Positions 1 to 45,306 of a stretch of 64,000 nt of DNA are shown piece by piece. Made by a program: the position numbers and the translations under genes. Source of the DNA: Vulcanimicrobiota bacterium (GTDB lineage Bacteria; Vulcanimicrobiota; Xenobia; Xenobiales; JADMJV01); NCBI GenBank assembly GCA_050250895.1, contig JBFWNU010000002.1, forward strand, positions 352,001 to 416,000. The letters are read 5' to 3'. Every line of letters begins with the position of its first letter. Position 1 is the first letter of the stretch. The notes beneath the pieces are model-generated. The model was not told where the DNA came from. It saw only the letters and a list, made by a program, of their open reading frames with translations, and did no database searches.

Positions 1-1716
1 GCCGTCATCGACACCGGCGTCGACTACAGCCACCCCGACCTCCAGGCCAACGTCTGGGTCAACCCTAACGAGATTCCTGGCGACGGCATCGACAACGACA
101 ACAACGGCGTCATCGACGACGTGCACGGCTACAACGCCACCAACGACAGCGGCGACCCGATGGACGACAACGACCATGGCTCGCACTGCTCCGGCACCAT
201 CGCCGGCCGCGGCAACAACGGCGAAGGCGTCGTTGGCGTGAACTGGAACGCCCAGGTTATGGGTGTCAAGTTCCTCACCGGTTCCGGCTCCGGCACCCTG
301 GCCGACGCCATCAAAGGCGTGATGTATGCCAGCCAGAACGGCGCCCGCATCACCTCCAACAGCTGGGGTGGCGGTGGCTTCAACCAGGCCCTCAAAGATG
401 CTCTGGCCGCTTCCCCGGCTCTGCACATCTTCGCGGCTGGTAACGAGAGCAACGACGACGACCGTCGTCCTACCTACCCGAGCGCTTTCGACCTCGACAA
501 TATCGTCTCGGTCGCCGCTACCGACCACAACGACCAGCTGGCCAGTTTCTCGAACTACGGCGCCACCAGCGTCGACCTGGCTGCCCCTGGCGTGGACATT
601 CTGTCCTCGACCCCCGGTGGCACCTACCAGAGCTTCAGCGGAACCTCGATGGCCACTCCTCACGTGGCTGGCGTGGCTGGCCTCATCGTCAGCCAGTTCC
701 CCGAGATCAGCAACGAAGAGCTCAAGTCGCGCCTGATGAACAGCGTCGACAAGAAGCCCCAGCTCGAAGGCCGCGTGCTTTCCGGTGGTCGCCTCAACGC
801 CTTCAACGCTCTCGAAGAAGACAACATCGCCCCGGGCGCTCCCAACGACTTCCGTGGCACTTCCGAAGCCCCCGGCGGCGCGGTCCTCAACTTCACCGCC
901 ACCGGTGACGACGGCTGGTGCGGCCAGGCCAACGGCTACGTGCTGCGCGTCAGCGACCGTCCCATCGTCGAGGGTGAGGCCGCCGAAGGCCAGACCAGCT
1001 TCGACGCCGCTAGCCCCATCGCCACCAACGCCCCCAGCGTGACCGGCACCATCGAGAACATCCCCGTGTCCCTGCCCCTCTCGGGCCAGGAGCGCACCTA
1101 CCACTTCGCGATGAAGGTGAAAGACAACGTCGGCAACCTGAGCGAGATCCGCACCACCAGCGTCACCGTTCCGGCCGCGACCGTAGCCTTCGAAGACACC
1201 ATCGACGGCGACACCAGCAACTGGAGCACCGAGAGCTGGGGTCAGGTGGAAGTCGACGGCCGCAAAGCCTGGACCGACTCCCCGAACGGCGACTACGGCA
1301 ACGACCAGAACAGCGCGCTGACCACCCGCGAGATCAGCCTCGGCCAACTGCGCGGCAGCACCTTGATGTTCGACTCGAAGTACGCTCTCGAGAACCGCTA
1401 CGACAAAGTCGCGGTCGAGATCGGTGAAGTCGCTCCTCCTCCGCCGCAGGATCCCGGTCAGGGCGGCGGCGGCCAGACCAAAGAGGTCATCAGCTGGAAC
1501 AAAGTTGCCGAGTTTACCGGCAGCTCCGACTGGGCCACCAACTCCATCGACCTGTCGGCTTACGATGGCAAGAACGTCCAGATCCGTTTCCGCCTCACCT
1601 CCGACGGTTCCGTCAACCAGGACGGCTTCTACCTGGACAACGTCGTCATCGCTGGCGACCGCGCTCCCGAGCAGCCTCCTCAGCAGCCCCCCCAGCAGCC
1701 CCCCACCCAGGGCTAA
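1..1716 (+). CDS. S8 subtilisin-like serine peptidase with C-terminal beta-sandwich (FN3-like, immune-inhibitor-A/MAM-like) domains; 5'-truncated
   Basis: Frame open from base 1: VIDTG, HGSHCSG, AAGN, GTSMATPHVAG; PQ-rich tail. Confidence 0.93.
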   Translation, partial: AVIDTGVDYSHPDLQANVWVNPNEIPGDGIDNDNNGVIDDVHGYNATNDSGDPMDDNDHGSHCSGTIAGRGNNGEGVVGVNWNAQVMGVKFLTGSGSGTLADAIKGVMYASQNGARITSNSWGGGGFNQALKDALAASPALHIFAAGNESNDDDRRPTYPSAFDLDNIVSVAATDHNDQLASFSNYGATSVDLAAPGVDILSSTPGGTYQSFSGTSMATPHVAGVAGLIVSQFPEISNEELKSRLMNSVDKKPQLEGRVLSGGRLNAFNALEEDNIAPGAPNDFRGTSEAPGGAVLNFTATGDDGWCGQANGYVLRVSDRPIVEGEAAEGQTSFDAASPIATNAPSVTGTIENIPVSLPLSGQERTYHFAMKVKDNVGNLSEIRTTSVTVPAATVAFEDTIDGDTSNWSTESWGQVEVDGRKAWTDSPNGDYGNDQNSALTTREISLGQLRGSTLMFDSKYALENRYDKVAVEIGEVAPPPPQDPGQGGGGQTKEVISWNKVAEFTGSSDWATNSIDLSAYDGKNVQIRFRLTSDGSVNQDGFYLDNVVIAGDRAPEQPPQQPPQQPPTQG

Positions 1717-10673: not shown

Positions 10674-11060
10674 TTAGTCGTCGAGCAGACCGGGCGGCGG
10701 CCCGAGGATCTCGCGCAGTAGCACGGCTCGCCGCAACTGGTCGCGATTCAGGCCGCCCAGCACGACGGCTCCCACACTGCGTTCCACCCGCACTGCCTCT
10801 TCGGGAGCGTGAAGGTGAGGCTCGGGGTCGCACTCGGGAACCGAGAAGACCTCGGCGGCCTCGACGGTCGGCTGCAAAGCCTGCTGCCTCTGCTGTGGCT
10901 GGCGGCGTTGCTGCCCTCCGCCCCGACCTTGCTGCTGCCGGGGCTTTTGGGCTTGCTTGGCGGCCTGAGCCTGCTGGGCAGCCACGGCTTTCTCCATCTG
11001 CTCCTTGGCCTGGCGTTCGGCCTCGGCGATGGCTTCTTTGAGTTGGCTGAAGATATCCAT
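10674..11060 (-). CDS. YqfB-like protein of the floA operon
   Basis: C-terminal LRRAVLLREILGPP motif; last gene of nfeD-floA-floA. Confidence 0.7.
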   Translation of the reverse strand: MDIFSQLKEAIAEAERQAKEQMEKAVAAQQAQAAKQAQKPRQQQGRGGGQQRRQPQQRQQALQPTVEAAEVFSVPECDPEPHLHAPEEAVRVERSVGAVVLGGLNRDQLRRAVLLREILGPPPGLLDD

Positions 11061-11947
11061 CAGTTACTCGCTTTGAGCCGTCCCGAACGCAGAGCCGCGG
11101 CCAGACCCAGGGGAACCCGGGCTTCGGCCTCGACGACTTTCGCTTTCATTTCGACCACGGAAGCCCGCATCTCTTCCTCGCGCGCAGCTGCTTCGGCGCG
11201 TCGTTGCTCGGCGCGAGCCTGGGCGATCTGCTTGTCGGCTTCGGCCTGGTCGATCTGCAGGTGGGCTCCGATGTTGCGCCCCACATCGACATCCATGATG
11301 TCGATGGAGAGAATTTCGAAAGCCGTGCCCGCATCAAGACCCTTGGAAATGACCCGCTGCGAGATGATGCTCGGGTTCTCGAGCACGTTCTTGTGGCTGT
11401 CGGCCGAGCCGATGGTGGTGACCACACCTTCGCCCACGCGGGCCAGAATGGTCTCTTCGCCGGCGCCGCCGACCAGACGCTCGATGTTGGCCTTGACGGT
11501 AATCCGGCAGATAGCTCGCACCTGAATACCATCCTTGGCCATGGCTGCGATAGGGGGGGTCTGGATGACCTTGGGATTGACGGTCATCGAGACCGCCTCG
11601 AGAACGTCGCGGCCGGCCAGGTCGATGGCCGAGGCGCGTCCAAAGTCGAGGGGGATCTTGGCTTTGTTGGCTTCGATCAGAGCTCTCACCAGTCTGAAGA
11701 CCTGGCCACCGGCCAGATAATGCGCTTCGAGCCCGTGCGCGGTCAAATCAGCCAGGCCCGCCTGACGTCCCATGATCAAGGGTTTCACCACGGCCGCCGG
11801 ATCGACCCGCCGCAGACGCATCAGCACCAGGGTGATGGGGCTGATGGACACTCCGGCCGAGACGGCTTCGAGCCAGAGCCCGATCGGAACATAGAAGAGA
11901 AAGAAGCCACCGCAAACTAGGACAATGGTCAATAAGATATAGGACAT
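11060..11947 (-). CDS. floA: flotillin-like protein FloA, paralog 2
   Basis: [54 protein letters not shown]. Confidence 0.93.
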
Positions 11948-11953
11948 CGTGTT

Positions 11954-12934
11954 TTAGCCTTTCTGCGGGGCTTTGTCGCTACCCGCGAGCGCCTGACGCA
12001 TCCTGGTGTCGGCGATGACGTTTTCCAGCTTGTAGTAGTCGAGCACGTTGAAGCGCCCGGATGAGAGAGCTTCGAACATCGCCTCGGGCACCTCGGCCTC
12101 AGCCTCGACCACTTTGGCGCGCATTTCTTCGACGCGGGCCCGCATTTCGGTCTGGCGAGCCATCGCCTCGGCGCGGCGCTGCTCGGCCCTGGCCTGCGCC
12201 ACTCGTTTATCGGCGTTGGCCTGATCGATTTGGAGGCGGGCTCCGATGTTTTCACCCACATCCACATCAGCGATGTCGATGGAGAGGATCTCGAAGGCGG
12301 TTCCCGAGTCCAACCCGGTGGCCAGCACGGCCTCTGTGATCAGGTCGGGGTTTTCGAGCACCTGCTTGAAGTCGCGGCTCTTACCGATAGCGGTCACGAT
12401 ACCCTCGCCGACGCGTGCCAGCACCGTTTCTTCACCGGCCGAACCGACCAGTTTCGAGATGTCGGTGCGCACGGTCACCAGGCAGGTGGCTTTGACCTGG
12501 ATACCGTCGTGGGCCACGGCCTCGATGAGGGGAGTCTGAATGACCTTGGGGTTGACGCTCATCTGAACCGCCTGCAGTACGTCACGACCGGCCAGGTCGA
12601 TGGAGGTGGCTGTCTCCCAGTCGAGTTCGATACCGGCCTTGGTGGCAGCGATGAGAGCAGCCACCACATTGCGGATGTTGCCGCCGGCCATGTAGTGGGT
12701 CTGAAGCTGGGCCACGCTGATGGGCAGGCCCGCGTAGTTTGCCGTGATGGCCGGAAGCACGATTTCGTGCGGCGGAATCTTGCGAAACGAGCGCATCACG
12801 AACAGCTCCACAAGACCCACTCGGACCTTCGAGAAGACTGCGCTCAGCCAGAGCGGAAAGGGCACGAAATAGAATAGCAACTGCACGCACATAAATGCGA
12901 TAAACAGTAAGAATAGAACAAATCCGAAATCCAC
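11954..12934 (-). CDS. floA: flotillin-like protein FloA, paralog 1
   Basis: [52 protein letters not shown]. Confidence 0.95.
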
Positions 12935-12954
12935 GAAGGGTCTCCTCCCTATTA

Positions 12955-13701
12955 CTAGTCCTGACCAGGAGTGGCCCGGACGACGACTTTGTTGCCTTGA
13001 ACAGATACGACTTCGACGTAGTGACCCTTTTGAATAAAGGATCCTTCTGTTACCACGTCGACGCGGCGACCGTCAAACTCGGCGATTCCGCCCGGCCGCA
13101 AGGGGCTCGAGCAAACTCCGACCGCGCCGATCTCGATACTCGAGGTGATGGTCACGGGGGTAGGGGGGCTCACGGGCGGCTCGAGCACGATAAACCCTCG
13201 GAATAGTCGGTTTTCGGGTAGGAATTTGAGCAACGCAAACCCTCCGCCCACGGCCGCGCACAGCGCGGAAAGAAAAACGGTTAAACCAGTTTCCCAGTTG
13301 TCAAAGGACAGCACGGTGGAACCACCGATGCCCAGAATCCCGATGACTCCAAAGACTCCCACCCCGGGCATCACAAAGATCTCTACCGCCAGACAAATGA
13401 GGCCACCCACGAAGAGAGCCAGGGGGACCCAAATGTCTTCACCCGCGAGATAGCGGCCGGCAAAGAAGAGCCCGATGGCGCAGAAAGCAGTCACCTCGGC
13501 CACGCCTGAGCCTAGAGTGATGACGGTCGCCGCCAGAGCGACCACTCCGATGATTAAAAGGGCGCCGGCTACCGCGGGCTGGGTGAGGAAATCGCCCACC
13601 TGGGCTTTCCATCCTGGTCCCTCGGCCAGGGCCGGGCCGCTGACCAAAAATGACAACACGGTCAGCAACAAGAGCCGGTCACCTGATAGCACTCCTCGCA
13701 T
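12955..13701 (-). CDS. NfeD family membrane protein without the protease domain
   Basis: TM block with EIFVMPG..G; C-terminal OB fold LRPGG...DVVTEG.FI; GGAGG RBS. Confidence 0.88.
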
Positions 13702-13892
13702 AGAACTCACCTCCAAAATCCAGTTCAATTATATCATATTCAACCGGATTTGCATATATGCATCACGGGACCCCCCCACGAATGGTGACCCGCTGACCTT
13801 TACGGCTTCGGGCTCAGCGGCCGCACCCCTCGTTTTTTTCGGGATTCTGCTGCTTTGAGGTATCTTTCAGGCTCGTCCCCTAGAGTCAAGCT

Positions 13893-36787: not shown

Positions 36788-37792
36788 TTAGTCCCAGCCG
36801 AAGAAACTCCGCATTTCGCCATACACCTCGGGATCGTCGGGCAAGCCCTGGTGGCACTTGGTGCCACCGCCCGGCAGGATCGAGGTGCATACCTCTTTGA
36901 GCTTGAGACTGGCCGCCTCGACCAGGCTGTCGCCTTCGGCAAAGCCCCACTCGGCGTAGGCCGGGGTGGTGAAGCCATCCGAGCCGACGGTGCGGACATC
37001 TTCGACTCGCTGCATCTGGCGCTCGAGACGGTCGTTGAGGCTGGCCAGTTGAGGGTTCTCGCCTTCATCCAGCGAGCGAAGCCAGGCCAGGGCCGGCAGC
37101 GCGGCCGGCTCCATGCCGGCCAGGCTCATGGCCCAGCCGACTCCCTGAGTGATGGCCCAGTGGCAAAGACTGGCCGTGCGGGTGCCCCGGTTGGGCGTGC
37201 CAATCATCATCAGCTTTCCGATTCCATCTCCCTCCTGGTCGAGGAAGAGTCGGGTCGAGATGCCCCCCATGCTATAGGCGGCCGCGTCCACCCTGGCGGC
37301 TCCGGTGAACTCTCGAATGGCGGGCAAATCTTTGTGTAACTGGGCGGCCATGTCGGGAGGCGCGTCCCACTTGCCGTGGGGCACGACCCGAAAAACCCGT
37401 GCCTCGGGATCCGGCTGGGCCGTCTGGCTGCATTCGGGATCAAGAAAGACCTGGCCGTCTCGAATATAATAGGGCCTACCGCCGTTGGCCCCGTCTTGGG
37501 TGAGGTGCTCCATCAGCGGTTCGAAGGTGGTCATCTCGGTGGTGAAGCCGGGCACCAGCACGACCGGGCGCTTCAAGGTCGAGCCCGGCTCGCCTTCGAG
37601 CCCGCCGCACAGCTTCTGGCTGAGGCTGCTCTTGAGATTGGCGAACTTGTATAGCAGTCCGCCCGCGGTAAAAAGGGCGCTATTCTTGAACGTATCGATC
37701 CAGCCCGGCTCGCTTTCGGTTGGCGTAGCGACAGGCCGGCTGGCCGGGCGTGCATAGGTAACGGGCACCCCGGTAGCAACTCGCATCTGCAT
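36788..37792 (-). CDS. lipase/esterase (PGAP1/lipase-2-like alpha/beta hydrolase)
   Basis: PVVLVPG, AYSMGG, IGTPNRG, GD..V, C-terminal His. Confidence 0.85.
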   Translation of the reverse strand: MQMRVATGVPVTYARPASRPVATPTESEPGWIDTFKNSALFTAGGLLYKFANLKSSLSQKLCGGLEGEPGSTLKRPVVLVPGFTTEMTTFEPLMEHLTQDGANGGRPYYIRDGQVFLDPECSQTAQPDPEARVFRVVPHGKWDAPPDMAAQLHKDLPAIREFTGAARVDAAAYSMGGISTRLFLDQEGDGIGKLMMIGTPNRGTRTASLCHWAITQGVGWAMSLAGMEPAALPALAWLRSLDEGENPQLASLNDRLERQMQRVEDVRTVGSDGFTTPAYAEWGFAEGDSLVEAASLKLKEVCTSILPGGGTKCHQGLPDDPEVYGEMRSFFGWD

Positions 37793-37864: not shown

Positions 37865-38236
37865 CTAGCGGATGACTCGAATGTCGAGGTCGAGTCCCAA
37901 TTCGAGCCAGACCTGGTCGGCGGTAAGAGCTGGAATGCCCCGAACGCGGGCCAAGCAGGCGCGATCCCCCGACGAGAGGCCGGGGACGCGAGTAACCGGT
38001 AGCAAAGCCGCACTCTCCGCCGCGTCGGCTGCGGAAAATCCAACGAATTCAATGGGACTGTTCAGTAGCCTGGTCAAGACCAGCCGCCCATCGTGACCAT
38101 CGCGAGTGAAATGCGATAACACCTCACACAGGTTCACGGTCGACATGCAGCTGTGTCCCAGGTTGGTGGCGACGACCTGGCTGCCTGGCTCGCCGTATAA
38201 GTAAGCCAGGAGCGTAGAAGCATTCAGCGCGATCAA
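37865..38236 (-). CDS. vapC: VapC PIN-domain toxin, probably degenerate
   Basis: VNLCEV, GLS.GDRACLA, LTAD..W; first conserved Asp reads Asn. Confidence 0.82.
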   Translation of the reverse strand: MIALNASTLLAYLYGEPGSQVVATNLGHSCMSTVNLCEVLSHFTRDGHDGRLVLTRLLNSPIEFVGFSAADAAESAALLPVTRVPGLSSGDRACLARVRGIPALTADQVWLELGLDLDIRVIR

Positions 38237-38483
38237 TCCTGGGCGGCCTCGCGCCGTCGACCTTGCAGAAAGTCTTCGACCACGCCTTCTGGCACTTGCC
38301 CGTGATAAAGTTCCCGAACGAACTCCTGCAACCCCTCGAGCGAGTTGCTATGGGTCTGGGGACGCACGGCGGCGGTGATGATTTCACGCGCCTCAGCCTC
38401 CATGCTGCGGCCGGCCAGGGCAGCCCGAAGGCGCAGTAGTGATGCACATCGTCGGGCAGATTTCTGAGGTTCAAAGTGGCCAT
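38233..38483 (-). pseudogene. FitA-like ribbon-helix-helix antitoxin, frameshifted
   Basis: MATLNLRNLPDDVHH, 1 nt missing near 38438, then LRLRAALAGRSMEAEAREII...AAQD* with stop overlapping the vapC start. Confidence 0.85.
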
Positions 38484-39077: not shown

Positions 39078-39307
39078 CGCTCACCTCCCGTTCCACCTGA
39101 CCTATCAGGGCATTCCACTGGTCATATTCGACCCGCCCGGCGCCAACTCCACCTGACCTTGAGCATTTGCTGTTGGCGGGGCTCCCGCGTTAAGTGTTAA
39201 CGAGCGTTAACAATTTCAACAACCCTTTAACTTGAGACTCATTCACAGCCGGGCCGGGGTTGGTCATACTGAGGATAGCTCGCGGAGCATCGAAAGGATC
39301 TCTGCAA

Positions 39308-42300
39308 GTGGCCCAAACCCAACCCGCCGGCAATAGCTCGAGCCCAAAGACAACCACAACCGCTCGACCGCCAGCTCCCTCGAAACCCTCTCCAAGCCCG
39401 TCTGCTGGCAAAAGCGATCAAGTCAGCAAGTCGCCGGGGCAACACGAGTCACCCTCGAAAGGCGCCGAAAAGGTGGCCGACCAGTGGCGAGTCGAGCAGG
39501 CGACTCAGGCGGCAGCCGACACCGACGACCCCGACCTCAAAGCCCGCGCTGAAGAACTCAAGACCAAGAAGCAAGATCCCGAAGAAACTCGCAAAGAGGC
39601 CGAAAAGCTCTCGGAAGAGGCGGCCGCCCATCAGGTCATCCAGCGACTCTACGATAGCTTTCCGGCCTTCATGCGTCCGGTCAGTCAGGTCGACGACAAT
39701 CTGTCGAGCTACGACGCCCTCATGCAGGCCAAGCTCAAAGACGGCACTCCCTATGTAGTGGCCGGCAAGCCTGACCAATCGGGACTGCTGACCAATTCTC
39801 ACTTCACTGGCCAGTTCAAGCCCGGCGAAGCCGATATCCTCAAGCAGTGGATCGCCAGGGGCGCCCCCTCGTGGGATAAGCAGGCCGGCCCACCCAAGCC
39901 CGACCAGAAGGTCGAGCACTTCGGCATCGACCCCAAACGCCTCGAGCAACTCAAGGCCGGCAAACTCGGCGACAAAGAGAAGAAAGAACTGGCCGAGTCG
40001 ATGAAGGGCATGCTCGAGCGTTTCAAGGGCGCGGCCGAGGAGGCCTATGGAGGTGGCCACCCCGACTACTTCAACTACGACAACTTTGCCGACGACGGCT
40101 ATCAGATGCTGCTCGACGGTCGCGACGCCTCGATGCCCCCGGGCTTTGACGATGTGCCCGAGTTCTGGAAGGGTCTGGGAGTCAACAATCAAGACGAGGT
40201 CGACGCCTACAAGGACCACCTGGCCGGGGTAGTCGGGCTGTGGGAAAAGGCCGGCAAGCCGAACTGGGAAGTCAAAGCCGATGAACCCGTGGACAAGTCG
40301 GGCCTGGCCAGCCGCGTTCACGAGCTGATCTCGACCACCTGGGCCGAGCATATTCCCGAGGAGAAGCGCTCCTCCTACGAGGCCTTCATGAAGGCCAAGG
40401 ACAGCTTCGGCGCTCCCTATGTGGTGGCTGGAAAGCCCGAAGAGTCGGCTTTTCTCAATTATGCTCAGATGGACAACTCGCCCCAGCGCGACGAGCGGGT
40501 GCAGGCGGTGCGCGATTGGATCGCCGCTGGCGCCCCCAGCTGGGAGACGGGCAACAACCAGCAGAACGTGACTCCGCCCCCGGCCGGAGAGCGCACCATC
40601 ACCAACTTCTTCGGAGCCGGCGCCGCCGGCAGCGACGAGTTCAGGGCTCTCGAGGCGGCCGGCCAGAGCGGCCAGTTCAGCCAGCAGCAGAAAGACGACC
40701 TGGCCCGCACCATGCAGGCGTTCACCCAGTTCTGGATCGGTAACGGCGCCGCCGCCAGCCATCAGGAGTATTTCCAGCACGAGAACTTCACCGGTGAGGG
40801 CGGTGGGCTGGACGTGCTGATCAACCAGGGAGCAAGTTCGGCCGGCAAGATGCCTCCCAACTCGAACCTCAAAGAAGCCTTGAAGGCGGCCGGGGTCGAC
40901 AACCCCGACACCGAGGCCTGGCGAGCCCAGATGGCCAAAGTGGCCAGTCTCTACAAGCAGGCCGGAGCCCCCGACTGGAATCAACTGGCGCCCGTGGGCG
41001 ACACCAAACCGGTGGACCCCATCGACCAGGCCGCTCCCATCACCTCCGAGGTGCGTGACACGGCCATGCTCGACTATCTCAAAGGCCTGGAATGCGACCA
41101 GGCCCGCAACACCCGCTTTTTTACCCTGGATGCCGTCGGTAAGAACCAGGACGGAAGCTACAGCCGCAGGGCCCAGCTCAACAGCCTGACCATGCTACTC
41201 AACAACATGCACTTCAATCCCGAGGCGGTCAAACTCAAGGAGGTTCCCGGTTCGGAGGGGCAGGTCTATGCCCTGGACATGCGCGACATGATCGTCTATG
41301 ACGGGCGCAACCATGGTCGCCGCGGTTATGACTATGGCGGCGGCTACGGCGGCCAGGGCGGGTTTCGTAGCTGGACCAACGGCAACGAGTGGCAGCGGGT
41401 GCTCTCGGAATACCCTTACGGCCTGACCAACCACACCAGCACTCAGGACCAGATCTGCGCCCTGACCGGAACCTCCCAATCCCAGGTGCGCGGCGACTGG
41501 TTCACCGCCCAGGCGGTGGGCAACTTCGCCCTCGACCTGGTGATGCCCGGGGTCAACCACACCAACCAGCTCGAGCACATCTTCGGCATCGATCGGCGTA
41601 GCGACTTTCTCACGGGCAACATGATGCGGGCCGGCTTCACCCAGAGCGGCGTGGCCAACGAGCATCGCATCGTCGACGTGCACGAGGGCAAGTGGGGCAG
41701 CGTGTGGTGGAGCTATGACTTCAACGACACCAACTTCAACCAGAACATCTACGCAAACCCGCTGGGCCCGTTCCAGTTCGACCATCGGGGCGACAACCCT
41801 TACAGCCGTTTCGGCTTTCAAACGGCCGCCTCCGAGATTCTCTTGCGCCTGCCCGGCGGAGGCACCCTGGCCGTGCTCTCGGACGGCAACGGAAACTTCG
41901 CCAACAACGCTCCCGAGAACATCGCCTGGAACCGCCTGGGGCACCACGGCGGACCGACCATCTTCTCGGTGGGCTCGGGCCTGGTGGGCCATTCCGACGG
42001 AATGCAGCCCATCCACCACAAAGACGAGATGTACCACCTGGCTCACCAGACCGACGCCTTGCCGCCCATTCACTACGGCGGTTACGGTAACTATGGTGGC
42101 TATGGAGGCTACGGTGGTTACGGCGGCTACGGCAACTACGGCGGAGGCTACCTCGACGCTCAACGCCAACTCCAGCGCATCACGCGTCCGCCCGAGGACT
42201 GGGCCCGCATCGTCACCGAGTACAACCTGGCGAATTACGAACACTACCAGCGCCTGGGCATCGTCAGCTTCGAAAATGGCGAACTCGACAAGATTCGGGG

Positions 42301-43201
42301 TGCCTTGCGCGACACCCAGGGAGTCGACGTGACCAACTCGCTCACCACTGCCCGAACCGCTTCCACCGGCGCCCTCGGCTCGTTTGGCCCCAACGTAGGA
42401 CGCTATCACAACACCAACATCGAGATGGGCACGGTGGCTACCGAGATGAACCTCAACGAGCAGCAACTGACTACCCTGCAGAATGCCATCCGCGAAGGCG
42501 ATAGTCGCCTGGACACCATTGGCCATTACTATGGTATCGAGAATCTCAGCGCCACCCTCTCTCCGCTCCTGCGCGGAGGCGAGAACCACGGGATCAAGCG
42601 CGAGTCGTTCGAGCAGGCCTATCCGGCCATCGCCCGCTTTCTCGGCACCGGCTCGCCCCAGCTGTTCGACTTCTACGACCACGGCGGTAAGCTTGGTATC
42701 GGCGGACCGTTCCGTGACGGCTCGCGCAAGCTCGGCGGCAAGCGCCTCACCGCCAGCGACAACGCCAACGCCGACAAGCTCAACGGCGAGAACGACAACA
42801 AGCGCAACACCAACAATAACAACCGCGGCCGCTGTAACGGCAACCGCAAGATGAACAATGATCGCGATGCCGACCTGGAAGACATCGTGGCCGCTCAGGC
42901 CCGTATGCTCTTGCTGGCGGCCGGCCGCGGACTGCCCAATCGCGGGCGCTCGTTTGTCGACCCCTCGATGGTCTCGGCCGCCGGAGGCAATCTGGCTCCG
43001 CTGGCCTCGAGCTTTCTCTCCAACCTCGAGCGGATGGACGAACTCGGTATCGAGCCCAGCAAAAAGAACGAGTTGCTCATCCTGGCGGCCACCCCGGTAG
43101 CCATCTCGATCCTGATGGCCAACAGCCTGGGAGGACGTCTGGCCGGGCTCGACCTGGAAGGCTTTGGCCGCGAGGCCGCCTTTCAGCCGTTCGTAGCTTA
43201 A
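39308..43201 (+). CDS. ~1300-aa protein of degenerate cytochrome-c-like modules lacking CxxCH
   Basis: Two SSY...YVVAGKP..S...WI..GAPSW modules, two MPP...AG.P.W modules, and a C-terminal RGDWF/RAGF..SGV/W.SYDF/NPLGP/EI...LP.G domain; start uncertain. Confidence 0.8.
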   Translation: MAQTQPAGNSSSPKTTTTARPPAPSKPSPSPSAGKSDQVSKSPGQHESPSKGAEKVADQWRVEQATQAAADTDDPDLKARAEELKTKKQDPEETRKEAEKLSEEAAAHQVIQRLYDSFPAFMRPVSQVDDNLSSYDALMQAKLKDGTPYVVAGKPDQSGLLTNSHFTGQFKPGEADILKQWIARGAPSWDKQAGPPKPDQKVEHFGIDPKRLEQLKAGKLGDKEKKELAESMKGMLERFKGAAEEAYGGGHPDYFNYDNFADDGYQMLLDGRDASMPPGFDDVPEFWKGLGVNNQDEVDAYKDHLAGVVGLWEKAGKPNWEVKADEPVDKSGLASRVHELISTTWAEHIPEEKRSSYEAFMKAKDSFGAPYVVAGKPEESAFLNYAQMDNSPQRDERVQAVRDWIAAGAPSWETGNNQQNVTPPPAGERTITNFFGAGAAGSDEFRALEAAGQSGQFSQQQKDDLARTMQAFTQFWIGNGAAASHQEYFQHENFTGEGGGLDVLINQGASSAGKMPPNSNLKEALKAAGVDNPDTEAWRAQMAKVASLYKQAGAPDWNQLAPVGDTKPVDPIDQAAPITSEVRDTAMLDYLKGLECDQARNTRFFTLDAVGKNQDGSYSRRAQLNSLTMLLNNMHFNPEAVKLKEVPGSEGQVYALDMRDMIVYDGRNHGRRGYDYGGGYGGQGGFRSWTNGNEWQRVLSEYPYGLTNHTSTQDQICALTGTSQSQVRGDWFTAQAVGNFALDLVMPGVNHTNQLEHIFGIDRRSDFLTGNMMRAGFTQSGVANEHRIVDVHEGKWGSVWWSYDFNDTNFNQNIYANPLGPFQFDHRGDNPYSRFGFQTAASEILLRLPGGGTLAVLSDGNGNFANNAPENIAWNRLGHHGGPTIFSVGSGLVGHSDGMQPIHHKDEMYHLAHQTDALPPIHYGGYGNYGGYGGYGGYGGYGNYGGGYLDAQRQLQRITRPPEDWARIVTEYNLANYEHYQRLGIVSFENGELDKIRGALRDTQGVDVTNSLTTARTASTGALGSFGPNVGRYHNTNIEMGTVATEMNLNEQQLTTLQNAIREGDSRLDTIGHYYGIENLSATLSPLLRGGENHGIKRESFEQAYPAIARFLGTGSPQLFDFYDHGGKLGIGGPFRDGSRKLGGKRLTASDNANADKLNGENDNKRNTNNNNRGRCNGNRKMNNDRDADLEDIVAAQARMLLLAAGRGLPNRGRSFVDPSMVSAAGGNLAPLASSFLSNLERMDELGIEPSKKNELLILAATPVAISILMANSLGGRLAGLDLEGFGREAAFQPFVA

Positions 43202-43602: not shown

Positions 43603-43654
43603 AAACCCTCCGATAGCAGGCTAAGGGAGTGGCCTTAAACTATCATCAAAGGGG

Positions 43655-44330
43655 CGACGGCTGCGCCGTCGAGAGGGGAGCCGCGACGGCTGCGCCGTCG
43701 AGAGGGGAGCTGCTTCGCAGAGAGGGGAGCGGAGCAGAGCTCCGGGATGGGAGCGAGTTGAGCTGTCGCTCAACTCGAGGTTTTGGGGTAGTCGACGCTT
43801 CGCGTCGTTAATCATTGGGCGGCTTCGCCGCCGGGTCGAGGGGGCGGAGGGCAACCGGGCTTTCGCCCGGAGAGGGGAGCTGCTTCGCAGAGAGTGGAGC
43901 TGCTTCGCAGAGATGGGAGCGGAGCAGAGCTCCGGGATGGGAGCGAGTTGAGCTGTCGCTCAACTCGAGGTTTTGGGGTAGTCGACGCTTCGCGTCGTTC
44001 ATCATTTGGCGGCTTCGCCGCCGGGTCGAGGGGGGCGGGGGCAGCCGCGACCGCTGCGCCGTCGAGAGGGGAGCCGGGCTGCGCCCGGAGAGGGGAGCTG
44101 CTTCGCAGAGATGGGAGCGGAGCAGAGCTCCGGGATGGGAGCGAACGACGGCTGCGCCGCCGACGAGGGGAGCCGGGCTGCGCCCGGAGAGGGGAGCTGC
44201 TTCGCAGAGAGGGGAGCGGAGCAGAGCTCCGGGATGGGAGCGAGTTGAGCTGTCGCTCAACTCGAGGTTTTGGGGTAGTCGACGCTTCGCGTCGTTCATC
44301 CATGGGCGGCTTCGCCGCCGGGTCGAGGGG
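43655..44330. repeat. mosaic mini-hairpin array, repeat family A
   Basis: Three copies of a ~110-bp core plus GACGGCTGCGCCGTC, CTGCTTCGCAG and CCGGGCTGCGCCCGG modules joined by GAGAGGGGAGC. Confidence 0.92.
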
Positions 44331-44360
44331 GCGGGGGGTCTCGGTCGCGAACTGGTTGCG

Positions 44361-44792
44361 ATGAGCATCTCGCCCAAGGAGTTCGAGAATGTGTCAGCTC
44401 TGTCTGGCGTCGGCCGGTTCAGCCACTTCGTGAAGCGGGTGGCGGATTGGGAAGAGCTATGGAGCTTGCGGTCGCCTGACGGCTGGGTGTTGCGGGGCGA
44501 CGAGGGGGGTGGGGAATACGTGCCGGTCTGGCCTCGGGCCGAGTATGCGCTGGCCTGTGCCACCGACATCTGGGCCGACTGCGCCCCCGCCCCGATTGCG
44601 CTCGATGAGTGGTTTGCGAAGTGGACTCCGGGCATGGCCAAAGATGGGCGCCGGGTCGAGGTTTTCCCCACTCCGTTCGCTTCTGGGCTCGTGCTGGCCC
44701 CCGAGGAACTGGCTCAGGCTCTGCGCGAGGAGTGCGCCAGGTATGGCGACTACGACGACTGCGATGGAGGCCCCGGTGGAACCGGTCCCTGA
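44361..44792 (+). CDS. DUF2750 family protein
   Basis: FVKRVADWEELWSL...DGW...PVWP..EYA..CA...W. Confidence 0.8.
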   Translation: MSISPKEFENVSALSGVGRFSHFVKRVADWEELWSLRSPDGWVLRGDEGGGEYVPVWPRAEYALACATDIWADCAPAPIALDEWFAKWTPGMAKDGRRVEVFPTPFASGLVLAPEELAQALREECARYGDYDDCDGGPGGTGP

Positions 44793-44802
44793 CGTCACGA
44801 GT

Positions 44803-45306
44803 ATGGCCAAGAGCTTGCAGGAGCTAGAAGAATTGGACTGGGGCGAGCCGACCTATAACTCGGCGGTGGACGGACGAGCCTATAGCTTGCGGAGGCTGCC
44901 GCTGGAACGGTTGAGCATCGACGACATCCGCTTTCTGGTGAGTCACGAAATCGGGCTTAAGTGGGTCTTGCCGCTTGCCCTCGAAAGGCTGCTGGTGGAG
45001 CCGCTGTGTGAAGCGAGCTATTACGCGGGGGATCTTCTCAAGAGTGTGATCCGCCTGGACCGGGTTCACTTCACCCCGTCTGGAGACGAGATTTCGAAGC
45101 TTCGTGAGGCGCTTGGACCGATCCAGCCGAGTGAGCTTAAGAGGCTCGAGTGTCCGGCCGATGTCGTCGAGACGATCGCTTTGTTCCTCGAGGACGGTCT
45201 TACGGCCACCTTCGAGCGGCCCCCCACATCTCGCGAGACATACGAGCGCTGGGTGACCCATATGCGATGGCACGCAAAGCACAAGCTGCCCCGTAGGCCG
45301 GGGTAG
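44803..45306 (+). CDS. CDI immunity protein (CdiI_3-like), orphan
   Basis: SLQELE..DWGEP...LRR.PL..L..DDIR.L...IGL..VLPLALE.L...PL.E..YY.GDLL. Confidence 0.85.
   Translation: MAKSLQELEELDWGEPTYNSAVDGRAYSLRRLPLERLSIDDIRFLVSHEIGLKWVLPLALERLLVEPLCEASYYAGDLLKSVIRLDRVHFTPSGDEISKLREALGPIQPSELKRLECPADVVETIALFLEDGLTATFERPPTSRETYERWVTHMRWHAKHKLPRRPG

Follow-up and report, generated by a model that had tools for sequence, protein, structure and literature searches.

The window analysed here, a 64,000-nucleotide stretch from the genome of a Vulcanimicrobiota bacterium (assembly GCA_050250895.1, contig JBFWNU010000002.1, positions 352,001 to 416,000), contains a gene for a protein of 1313 residues that is built of four small modules in the order A1-B1-A2-B2, a central alpha/beta domain and a long C-terminal part. 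Based on the comparison with its homologues, we consider it very probable that this protein descends from c-type cytochromes and has lost the covalent attachment of haem; at both CxxCH sites that could be tested the cysteines have been replaced, and the export signal of the relatives has been lost as well. Our best explanation of the whole, to which we give a probability of roughly 0.4, is that the protein, which descends from an exported family of two-haem c-type cytochromes and lacks both their cysteines and their signal, would stay in the cytoplasm. Its two B modules, each with an invariant histidine and a Met-Pro-Pro motif, would hold haem b non-covalently, the retained histidine of the central domain might also hold haem b, and the A modules would act as haem-independent scaffolds.

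Descent from a haem-c family

The gene is a single open reading frame (ORF) on the forward strand (window 39260-43201; 1313 codons from a TTG, with the stop at 43199-43201), and its composition is of the coding type, the GC content being 0.80 at third codon positions (GC3) and 0.44 at second positions (GC2). The ORF is real and conserved. The original prediction had described a giant multi-module protein resembling a cytochrome c, with an A-B-A-B duplication, without any CxxCH and with former attachment sites at YGGGH, TWAEH, AAASH and GLVGH. All four motifs lie in frame where it had placed them (Table 1), every motif that it had listed for the C-terminal domain is present in the translation, and the duplication was recovered, residues ~145-345 matching ~367-586 with 68 identities in 225 positions (30%, E 2e-23). 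The absence of CxxCH was borne out too: the protein has only three cysteines (612, 733 and 1192), and no C..CH motif occurs in its 1313 residues or in those of its relatives P0002 and P0152, which are described below. A single-cysteine xxxCH motif was not found in the 1313 residues either, no cysteine adjoining any histidine; of the three, C612 and C733 have no counterpart in P0152, and P0002 lacks C733 too. Whole-protein searches of Pfam, NCBIfam, PADLOC and the PDB sequences gave no usable match.

Relatives were searched for exhaustively with phmmer among 1.84 billion representatives, which yielded 1207 at E <= 1e-3, 676 at <= 1e-10 and two at <= 1e-30, the best distant match being at 1.1e-28. 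The two close matches are P0002 (full length, 96% identical) and P0003, and the remaining relatives, among the matches listed, align mainly to residues ~700-925, that is, to the central domain. Typical relatives are ~590 residues long, with an N-terminal PSCyt1 domain and ~450 further residues that Pfam scans leave unannotated; a PSCyt1 match at E <= 10 was present in 60 of the 64 homologues of our 65-row family alignment. At least one CxxCH was found in 146 of 148 distant homologues, the two exceptions being fragments of 316 and 159 residues. When the central domain was aligned with MAFFT, Cys was found under G907 and G910 in 145 of the 148 homologues, with three gaps, His and Gly stood under H911 and G914 in the same number, and the S906 column held Ser in 143. 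The central site of the studied protein keeps S906, H911 and G914 of the S-CxxCH..G motif, and both of its cysteines are changed to Gly. This alignment supports the predicted position of GLVGH on the CxxCH columns, and the homologue motif S-CxxCH..GM, which the original prediction had quoted, proved correct. Moreover, a profile of the family matched the locus at E 1.2e-95 in a search of the whole genome, in which the domain has its sole copy. The comparisons show residues 586-1140 to be homologous to a haem-c family without a name, which is large and for the most part planctomycetal.

Clustered at 50% identity, this parent family amounts to at least 1207 clusters, and at least 578 loci of it have been confirmed in species genomes; it has neither a Pfam model nor a solved structure. 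In 67 long homologues, the fusions N-terminal of the module are Ser/Thr kinases (11) and FHA domains (3), and those C-terminal of it are FGE-sulfatase (5), DUF4384 (4), WD40 (3) and other binding domains; because of these fusion partners, an extracytoplasmic role in sensing or binding is suggested for the family. AlphaFold2 modelled the central part of the studied protein from 65 rows with a predicted local distance difference test (pLDDT) of 84.2 and a predicted template modelling score (pTM) of 0.84. A Foldseek search of the PDB with this model gave no match (best E 0.75), the ESM Atlas held no usable match for the central domain, and among shorter proteins none matched it at E <= 1e-10.

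As regards the A modules, the original prediction had noted a resemblance to the planctomycete cytochrome C domain, and this view is strengthened by hhalign, in which six A modules matched the PSCyt1 alignment with a probability of 98.2% (E 4e-14, 44 columns). A profile made from 127 CxxCH-proximal PSCyt1 domains of the homologues scored 16.9 bits on A1 (150-210) and 25.8 bits on A2 (364-436), and the 65-row family profile picked out A2 genome-wide (C2:392304-392567, which is window 40304-40567; E 4.1e-5). H364, the histidine of TWAEH in A2, aligns with the CxxCH histidine of the 127-domain profile, so this motif stands on a former attachment site as had been proposed, and A1, in which no remnant had been seen, has indeed no histidine there. 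The methionine of the profile falls on S407 in A2 and on nothing in A1, the Met-Pro-Pro methionine being absent from both. The Pfam model of PSCyt1 (PF07635) matches no module at E <= 1. In these profile comparisons, A1 and A2 are shown to be homologous to cytochrome c domains of the PSCyt1/FoxE type.

A second lineage of the same architecture is represented by P0152 (1475 residues, from an ENA assembly), which is 56% identical overall, keeps the internal duplication and both Met-Pro-Pro motifs, and reads YGGEH, PWAEH, AIASH and GLIGH at the four sites. The identity between the two proteins amounts to 70% in A1, 55% in B1, 72% in A2 and 67% in B2, and to 83% both in the central beta/haem part and in a Gly-rich motif of the tail. 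It is 20-46% in the linkers, where insertions of up to 49 residues occur, and the extreme C-terminus is 44% conserved. The blocks round the former sites, namely WAEHIPEEKRSSYEAF, SHQEYFQH.NF and VGSGL.GH.DGMQPIH, are among the best-conserved stretches. Conserved modules together with divergent linkers point to purifying selection on the modules. It had also been noted that several of the substituted codons are one base from a Cys codon; this holds for five of the eight (TAT, GGC, AGC, GGC and GGC) and not for ACC, GAG and GCC, and it is uninformative on recency because P0152, at that low identity, has the same substitutions. Scans with an alignment of the clade found no further members in the GTDB species genomes or the JGI metagenomes, and no homologue was found among 60 relatives of the host genome, from genus to phylum.

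A quick IQ-TREE of the central domain was made from 79 loci, one of the 80 having been dropped for short coverage. By record title, 63 of the 79 belong to Planctomycetota and the others to Bdellovibrionota, Armatimonadota, Acidobacteriota and further phyla, and CxxCH occurs at least once in each of the 80 family ORFs. The three cysteine-free rows group together, with a Shimodaira-Hasegawa-like approximate likelihood ratio test (SH-aLRT) value of 100, inside a supported set of 25 rows of mixed phyla, and in this tree the cysteine-free state is derived. The exact placement of the clade is unsure because its amino-acid composition deviates from that of the family. A decaying, non-functional gene, i.e., a horizontally acquired cytochrome gene that has lost its motifs and is drifting, would account for the lack of any homologue among the 60 relatives, for the very long branch of the clade and for the loss of all of the family hallmarks. 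This is, however, very improbable in view of the intact 3.9-kb frame with its high GC3, the architecture kept at 56% identity with domains at 55-83% and linkers at 20-46%, and the internal duplication that both lineages have retained.

The relatives' export signal is absent from the clade. With hydropathy taken as the maximum over 12 residues, 55 of the 64 stand-alone haem-bearing homologues reach at least 1.8 within their first 60 residues, the nine below this value including evident fragments. The maxima in the first 130 residues of the three clade members are 0.86, 0.41 and -0.29, with no signal-like stretch, which agrees with the predicted lack of a Sec signal. The protein had likewise been placed outside the maturation pathway of c-type cytochromes, and the loss of the cysteines at the testable sites together with the missing signal sustains this. 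The host genome (9.5 Mb, 99.6% complete) encodes CcsA and ResB side by side, that is, System II of cytochrome c maturation, so missing maturation machinery was rejected as the cause of the cysteine loss. Elsewhere in this genome (C1:1452917-1454101, L002/L089) lies its only other PSCyt1-like sequence, a polytopic membrane protein that ends in a cytochrome c domain with CLQCH ... MPLG ... WLAQGAP. Because CcsA, ResB and this canonical CLQCH domain are present, the host does make c-type cytochromes.

According to one report, covalent c-haem is extracytoplasmic and needs CxxCH, and cytoplasmic haem sensors use haem b (10.64898/2026.02.01.703092). Without export and a CxxCH no attachment takes place, and as the clade has lost the two together, the protein cannot be a c-type cytochrome. 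One might still suppose a c-type cytochrome with an unrecognised start or signal or with an unusual attachment motif, given that CcsA and ResB are encoded in the genome. This alternative is close to refuted: only three in-frame starts are available, none of them with a hydrophobic N-terminus, C612 and C733 are unconserved, and neither an xxxCH nor any other Cys beside a His exists.

Candidate haem sites, location and alternatives

In A1 neither axial ligand is present, and because of this we take the module as haem-free; at least part of the protein therefore works without haem. A2 is probably haem-free. B1 and B2 are paralogues with 33% identity, in which 34 of 115 columns are invariant, including the His, Tyr-Phe, Asn-Phe, Met-Pro-Pro and the terminal Trp, all of which are also kept in P0152. 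Since such distant paralogues retain these residues in both lineages, B1 and B2 are the best candidates for His/Met-ligated haem b and, we infer, the likeliest haem b sites of the protein. Binding of haem b by at least one module should nonetheless be regarded as tentative, at somewhat less than even odds. Non-covalent haem is chemically feasible, because cytochrome c552 of H. thermophilus with both cysteines replaced by Ala is reported to be a b-type cytochrome (PMC4451467).

The AGAPDW end of B2 stands directly before the central domain, and the PSCyt1 domains of the homologues end with AG.P.. at the same position. The ESM Atlas held no usable match for B1. AlphaFold2 modelled A2-B2 from an effective alignment of three rows with a pLDDT of 55.3, which is unusable, and a fold search with this model retrieved generic helical bundles; it is uninformative on B because the A2 control also retrieved no cytochromes. 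Of the four motifs that had been assigned to CxxCH columns, GLVGH and TWAEH stand, and the assignment of YGGGH and AAASH is unproven because B has no detectable haem-bearing relatives and its fold could not be modelled. In the same way, A1, A2 and the central domain bear out the description as a multi-module protein of the cytochrome c kind, which is unproven for B1 and B2.

A number of findings weigh against the proposed binding of haem b in the cytoplasm. The cytochrome ancestry of the B modules is unproven: a B profile had no significant match among 150 homologues, found only the two clade members among the longer proteins of a 5.8-billion database and gave only spurious matches among the PDB sequences (a Nanos peptide and a rutinosidase). 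In hhalign, B aligned with PSCyt1 over the last 15 columns only (W..AG.P.W; 47% probability), and the spacing from His to Met is 25-30 residues in B as compared to ~50 in PSCyt1 (P0009). Both ligands, His and Met, are gone from A1, and Glu replaces the second Cys in A2. In the central domain, 28 of the 81 family columns that are at least 80% conserved have changed and 53 are kept; the changes are clustered in GGE.IF.LPNGLQGY and NG.SC..CH, and eight of them replace a polar or charged residue with a non-polar one or Gly (K645M, Y756F, S799A, R807V, N866G, Y871A, R880F and E1043G). The pocket of this domain appears to have been remodelled, and its role as a haem site is uncertain. Additionally, the stem of the clade is the longest in the tree, with 2.94 substitutions per site (the next being 1.62 and the median between haem-bearing rows 2.1), and the retention of the four histidines is non-significant with two independent lineages, the product of the segment identities being ~0.2. 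The missing signal is the single ground on which a cytoplasmic location is predicted.

An entirely haem-free pseudo-cytochrome, in which all five units would have lost the cofactor, their surfaces would bind a protein or a ligand and the His and Met-Pro-Pro would be relics, is a real possibility, although we hold it to be less than probable. It draws on the ligand-free A1, the changed central columns, the Pfam PSCyt1 model that matches no module, the amino-acid composition off the family norm and the long stem, which fits loss of the cofactor better because a simple c-to-b switch needs less change. On the other hand, it has to account for a His and a Met-Pro-Pro that are invariant in both B paralogues and both lineages, and for the strong conservation of the blocks round the former sites. 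Moreover, Gly, Ala or Ser stands at four of the six former Cys positions of B2, B1 and the central domain, which is compatible with an unattached haem edge. The proposed binding of haem b can also be carried further, to a natural c-to-b conversion, in which a periplasmic lineage would have moved into the cytoplasm and dropped its thioether cysteines. The B modules would then be a new duplicated His/Met haem b domain on flexible linkers, and the clade a new class of multi-site haem-buffering or haem-sensing proteins; this extended form seems doubtful to us.

Another alternative concerns the location. The protein might leave the cell without an N-terminal signal, by a type I-like or other one-step route, and act extracellularly, e.g., in haem scavenging or in a matrix. 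It is large and acidic with its three cysteines in 1313 residues, it has no N-terminal signal, its clade-specific C-terminal extension includes the Gly-rich motif shared with P0152 at 83% identity, and there are Gly/Tyr-rich low-complexity inserts, all of which would suit such a route. However, no HlyD, TolC or ABC exporter of the type I secretion system (T1SS) was found among the 49 ORFs of the window that were scanned (22 + 27), and the one-step secretion that the original prediction had suggested found no backing there. Furthermore, no RTX-type repeat family from Pfam matched the protein, the extreme C-terminus is poorly conserved with a hydrophobic stretch that is not common to P0152, and the low Cys content may simply be inherited because the periplasmic parent family is also Cys-poor. 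We consider this route improbable and a cytoplasmic protein with haem b in its B modules the better explanation.

Gene layout and neighbouring observations

The features of the protein are listed in Table 1. Within the first 135 codons, the ORF has three in-frame starts only. TTG 39260 is without a Shine-Dalgarno-like sequence. GTG 39308, which had been chosen in the original prediction (1297 residues), is preceded by AAAGGA at -14, and the single promoter-like site (39242-39270) is found shortly upstream of it. GTG 39473 (1242 residues) corresponds to the annotated start of the ortholog P0002. The flanking genes are on the opposite strand, DUF1905/OmdA lying upstream and a short hydrophobic ORF lying downstream, and because of this the gene looks monocistronic.

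Table 1. Features of the studied protein; residues are counted from TTG 39260 and positions are those of the window
Feature	Residues	Position	Strand	Remarks
Leader	1-125	39260..39634	+	Ala/Ser/Lys/Pro/Glu-rich, without a hydrophobic segment; 24% identity to P0152, with indels
Module A1	126-210	39635..39889	+	degenerate PSCyt1-type domain; without CxxCH, proximal-site His and MPP
Module B1	230-339	39947..40276	+	YGGGH 40046-40060, MPP (M292); clade-specific helical module
Module A2	346-432	40295..40555	+	degenerate PSCyt1-type domain; TWAEH 40337-40351, H364 on the CxxCH His
Module B2	469-576	40664..40987	+	AAASH 40748-40762, MPP (M531); AGAPDW end directly before the central domain
Central alpha/beta domain	586-935	41015..42064	+	homologue of the unnamed haem-c domain of the PSCyt1 family
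Gly/Tyr-rich insert inside the central domain	around 686-702			
GLVGH, former CxxCH site of the central domain	G907, G910, H911	41978..41992	+	
Gly-Tyr repeat	936-964	42065..42151	+	low complexity, pLDDT <50; absent from haem-bearing homologues, variable in P0152
Helical C-terminal domain	965-1140	42152..42679	+	common to the parent family
Clade-specific Gly-rich motif	1141-1176	42680..42787	+	83% identical to P0152
Asn-rich low-complexity stretch	1177-1204	42788..42871	+	Gly-rich in P0152
Clade-specific C-terminal region	1205-1313	42872..43198	+	hydrophobic stretch 1272-1290 (Kyte-Doolittle 2.02), non-hydrophobic in P0152

The C-terminal part recurs in P0003, a sequence of 457 residues from an ENA contig of 1909 bp, in which a SurA_N/rotamase N-terminus is joined to the last 258 residues of the studied protein (94% identity; window ~42425-43198). 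Modular swapping of the C-terminus was considered as its origin and rejected; on a 1.9-kb contig, P0003 is most likely an assembly chimera and no natural fusion.

Downstream of the gene, a non-coding array occupies window 43646-44344, with units of ~170-190 nucleotides and sub-repeats of 20-29 nucleotides round a GAGAGGGGAGC core. A 169-nucleotide unit of it gave 90 BLAST matches on 10 of the 17 contigs of the genome, because of which the array can be regarded as part of a repeat family that is dispersed between genes; the long ORFs that overlap on both of its strands are probably artefacts of the repeats. It is followed at 44509-45306 (+) by an ORF with a CdiI_3 immunity domain (PF18616, E 1e-16), with no recognisable toxin gene adjoining. 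On the other side, a PIN-domain toxin-like gene lies at 37865-38483 (-) (PF01850, E 3e-7), for which a small overlapping upstream ORF may be the antitoxin. An alpha/beta-hydrolase-like ORF at 36788-37792 (-), two genes upstream of the studied gene, has a weak DUF7379 match (E 4e-5, below the cut-off). Further away, at 11060-13728 (-), there are two tandem FloA flotillin genes (E 1e-131 and 1e-142) and then a gene of the NfeD membrane protease type.

Significance and comparison with known systems

The purpose of covalent haem attachment in c-type cytochromes is an old open question, which laboratory Cys-to-Ala variants address for single small domains only. The clade described here is a natural experiment on this question: both cysteines at the testable sites and the export signal were lost, yet the protein has been selected across a deep divergence, and the genome of a clade member still matures ordinary c-type cytochromes. 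If the modules bind haem b, the same folds would be at hand in nature in a c-type and a matching b-type version, and if they bind none, the clade would clearly exemplify the reuse of cofactor-binding domains as scaffolds. The analysis also exposed the parent family as a widespread haem-c module, for which fusions to Ser/Thr kinases and FHA domains are frequent. No description of the clade or of the central domain of the parent family was found in open-access papers or on bioRxiv, and no functional account of PSCyt1 was found among the listed papers that name it. Searches of the literature on haem-less cytochromes and pseudo-cytochromes returned almost only metabarcoding noise.

The closest known system is the family of PSCyt1 plus haem-c proteins itself, e.g., Singulisphaera acidiphila WP_015243877.1, annotated as a protein kinase domain-containing protein; the family aligns with residues 586-1140 over the full length of the central and helical domains, with E-values down to 1e-28. 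The family and the studied protein agree in the PSCyt1-type domain that precedes the central domain. In the family members, PSCyt1 and the end of the beta-rich domain each carry a CxxCH (145 of 148), and 55 of 64 stand-alone members have a hydrophobic N-terminus, whereas the studied protein has neither; instead of one or two small modules it has four, and it carries Gly/Tyr inserts and an extra tail of 170 residues. Among solved structures, the di-haem cytochrome FoxE (5mab) was matched by the family profile in both of its haem domains (E 3e-14), and it was the only PDB match of the A profile, at a non-significant E of 0.89. Compared to PSCyt1 (PF07635) and FoxE, the A modules keep PG.PE.S.L and WI..GAP and are without the CxxCH and the Met-Pro-Pro methionine, A1 being also without the His.

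Two further likenesses are leads only. In VIA-align, five of the seven best rows for the model of the central domain were cytochromes c'-beta/P460 (8brk, 6hiu, 7s5o, 6amg and 2je3), with Z-scores of 5.3, 4.7, 4.5, 3.7 and 3.6, which are below the tool's reliable level, and 3.8 for the best unrelated row; 100-110 residues were aligned, within model residues ~173-402. The haem motif of the family follows a beta-sheet, which we take to be its position in P460/c'-beta as well. However, the central domain of the studied protein is three times larger, and the P460 family (PF16694) did not match the locus at E <= 10 and was not among the best 25 of 47 families for the 65-row alignment. The second lead is CTI (PF06934), which consists of an N-terminal haem-c domain and a large domain. 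Weak colinear matches to it occur in five of the 64 stand-alone family members (E 0.008-0.09, below the Pfam cut-off), in which profile positions ~81-181 cover the end of PSCyt1 and the start of the central domain; in the host genome, the CTI model had no match on the locus.

Cytochrome b562 and cytochrome c' form a natural pair of b-type and c-type proteins. Both families that are split into haem-c and motif-less members and engineered c-to-b conversions are already known. In the engineered c552, in which CxxCH was changed to AxxAH, one small domain of a laboratory construct holds haem non-covalently via His/Met. Here, in contrast, a naturally occurring change extends over several domains simultaneously and goes together with the loss of export, and haem binding is predicted from conserved residues. 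A parallel for a split family is sCache_haem versus the classical sCache, one family divided by covalent c-haem and CxxCH, with haem-c members fused to signalling modules (10.64898/2026.02.01.703092). In that case, the fold is another one, the motif was gained by insertion and the motif-less members are extracytoplasmic, whereas the clade studied here has lost the motif.

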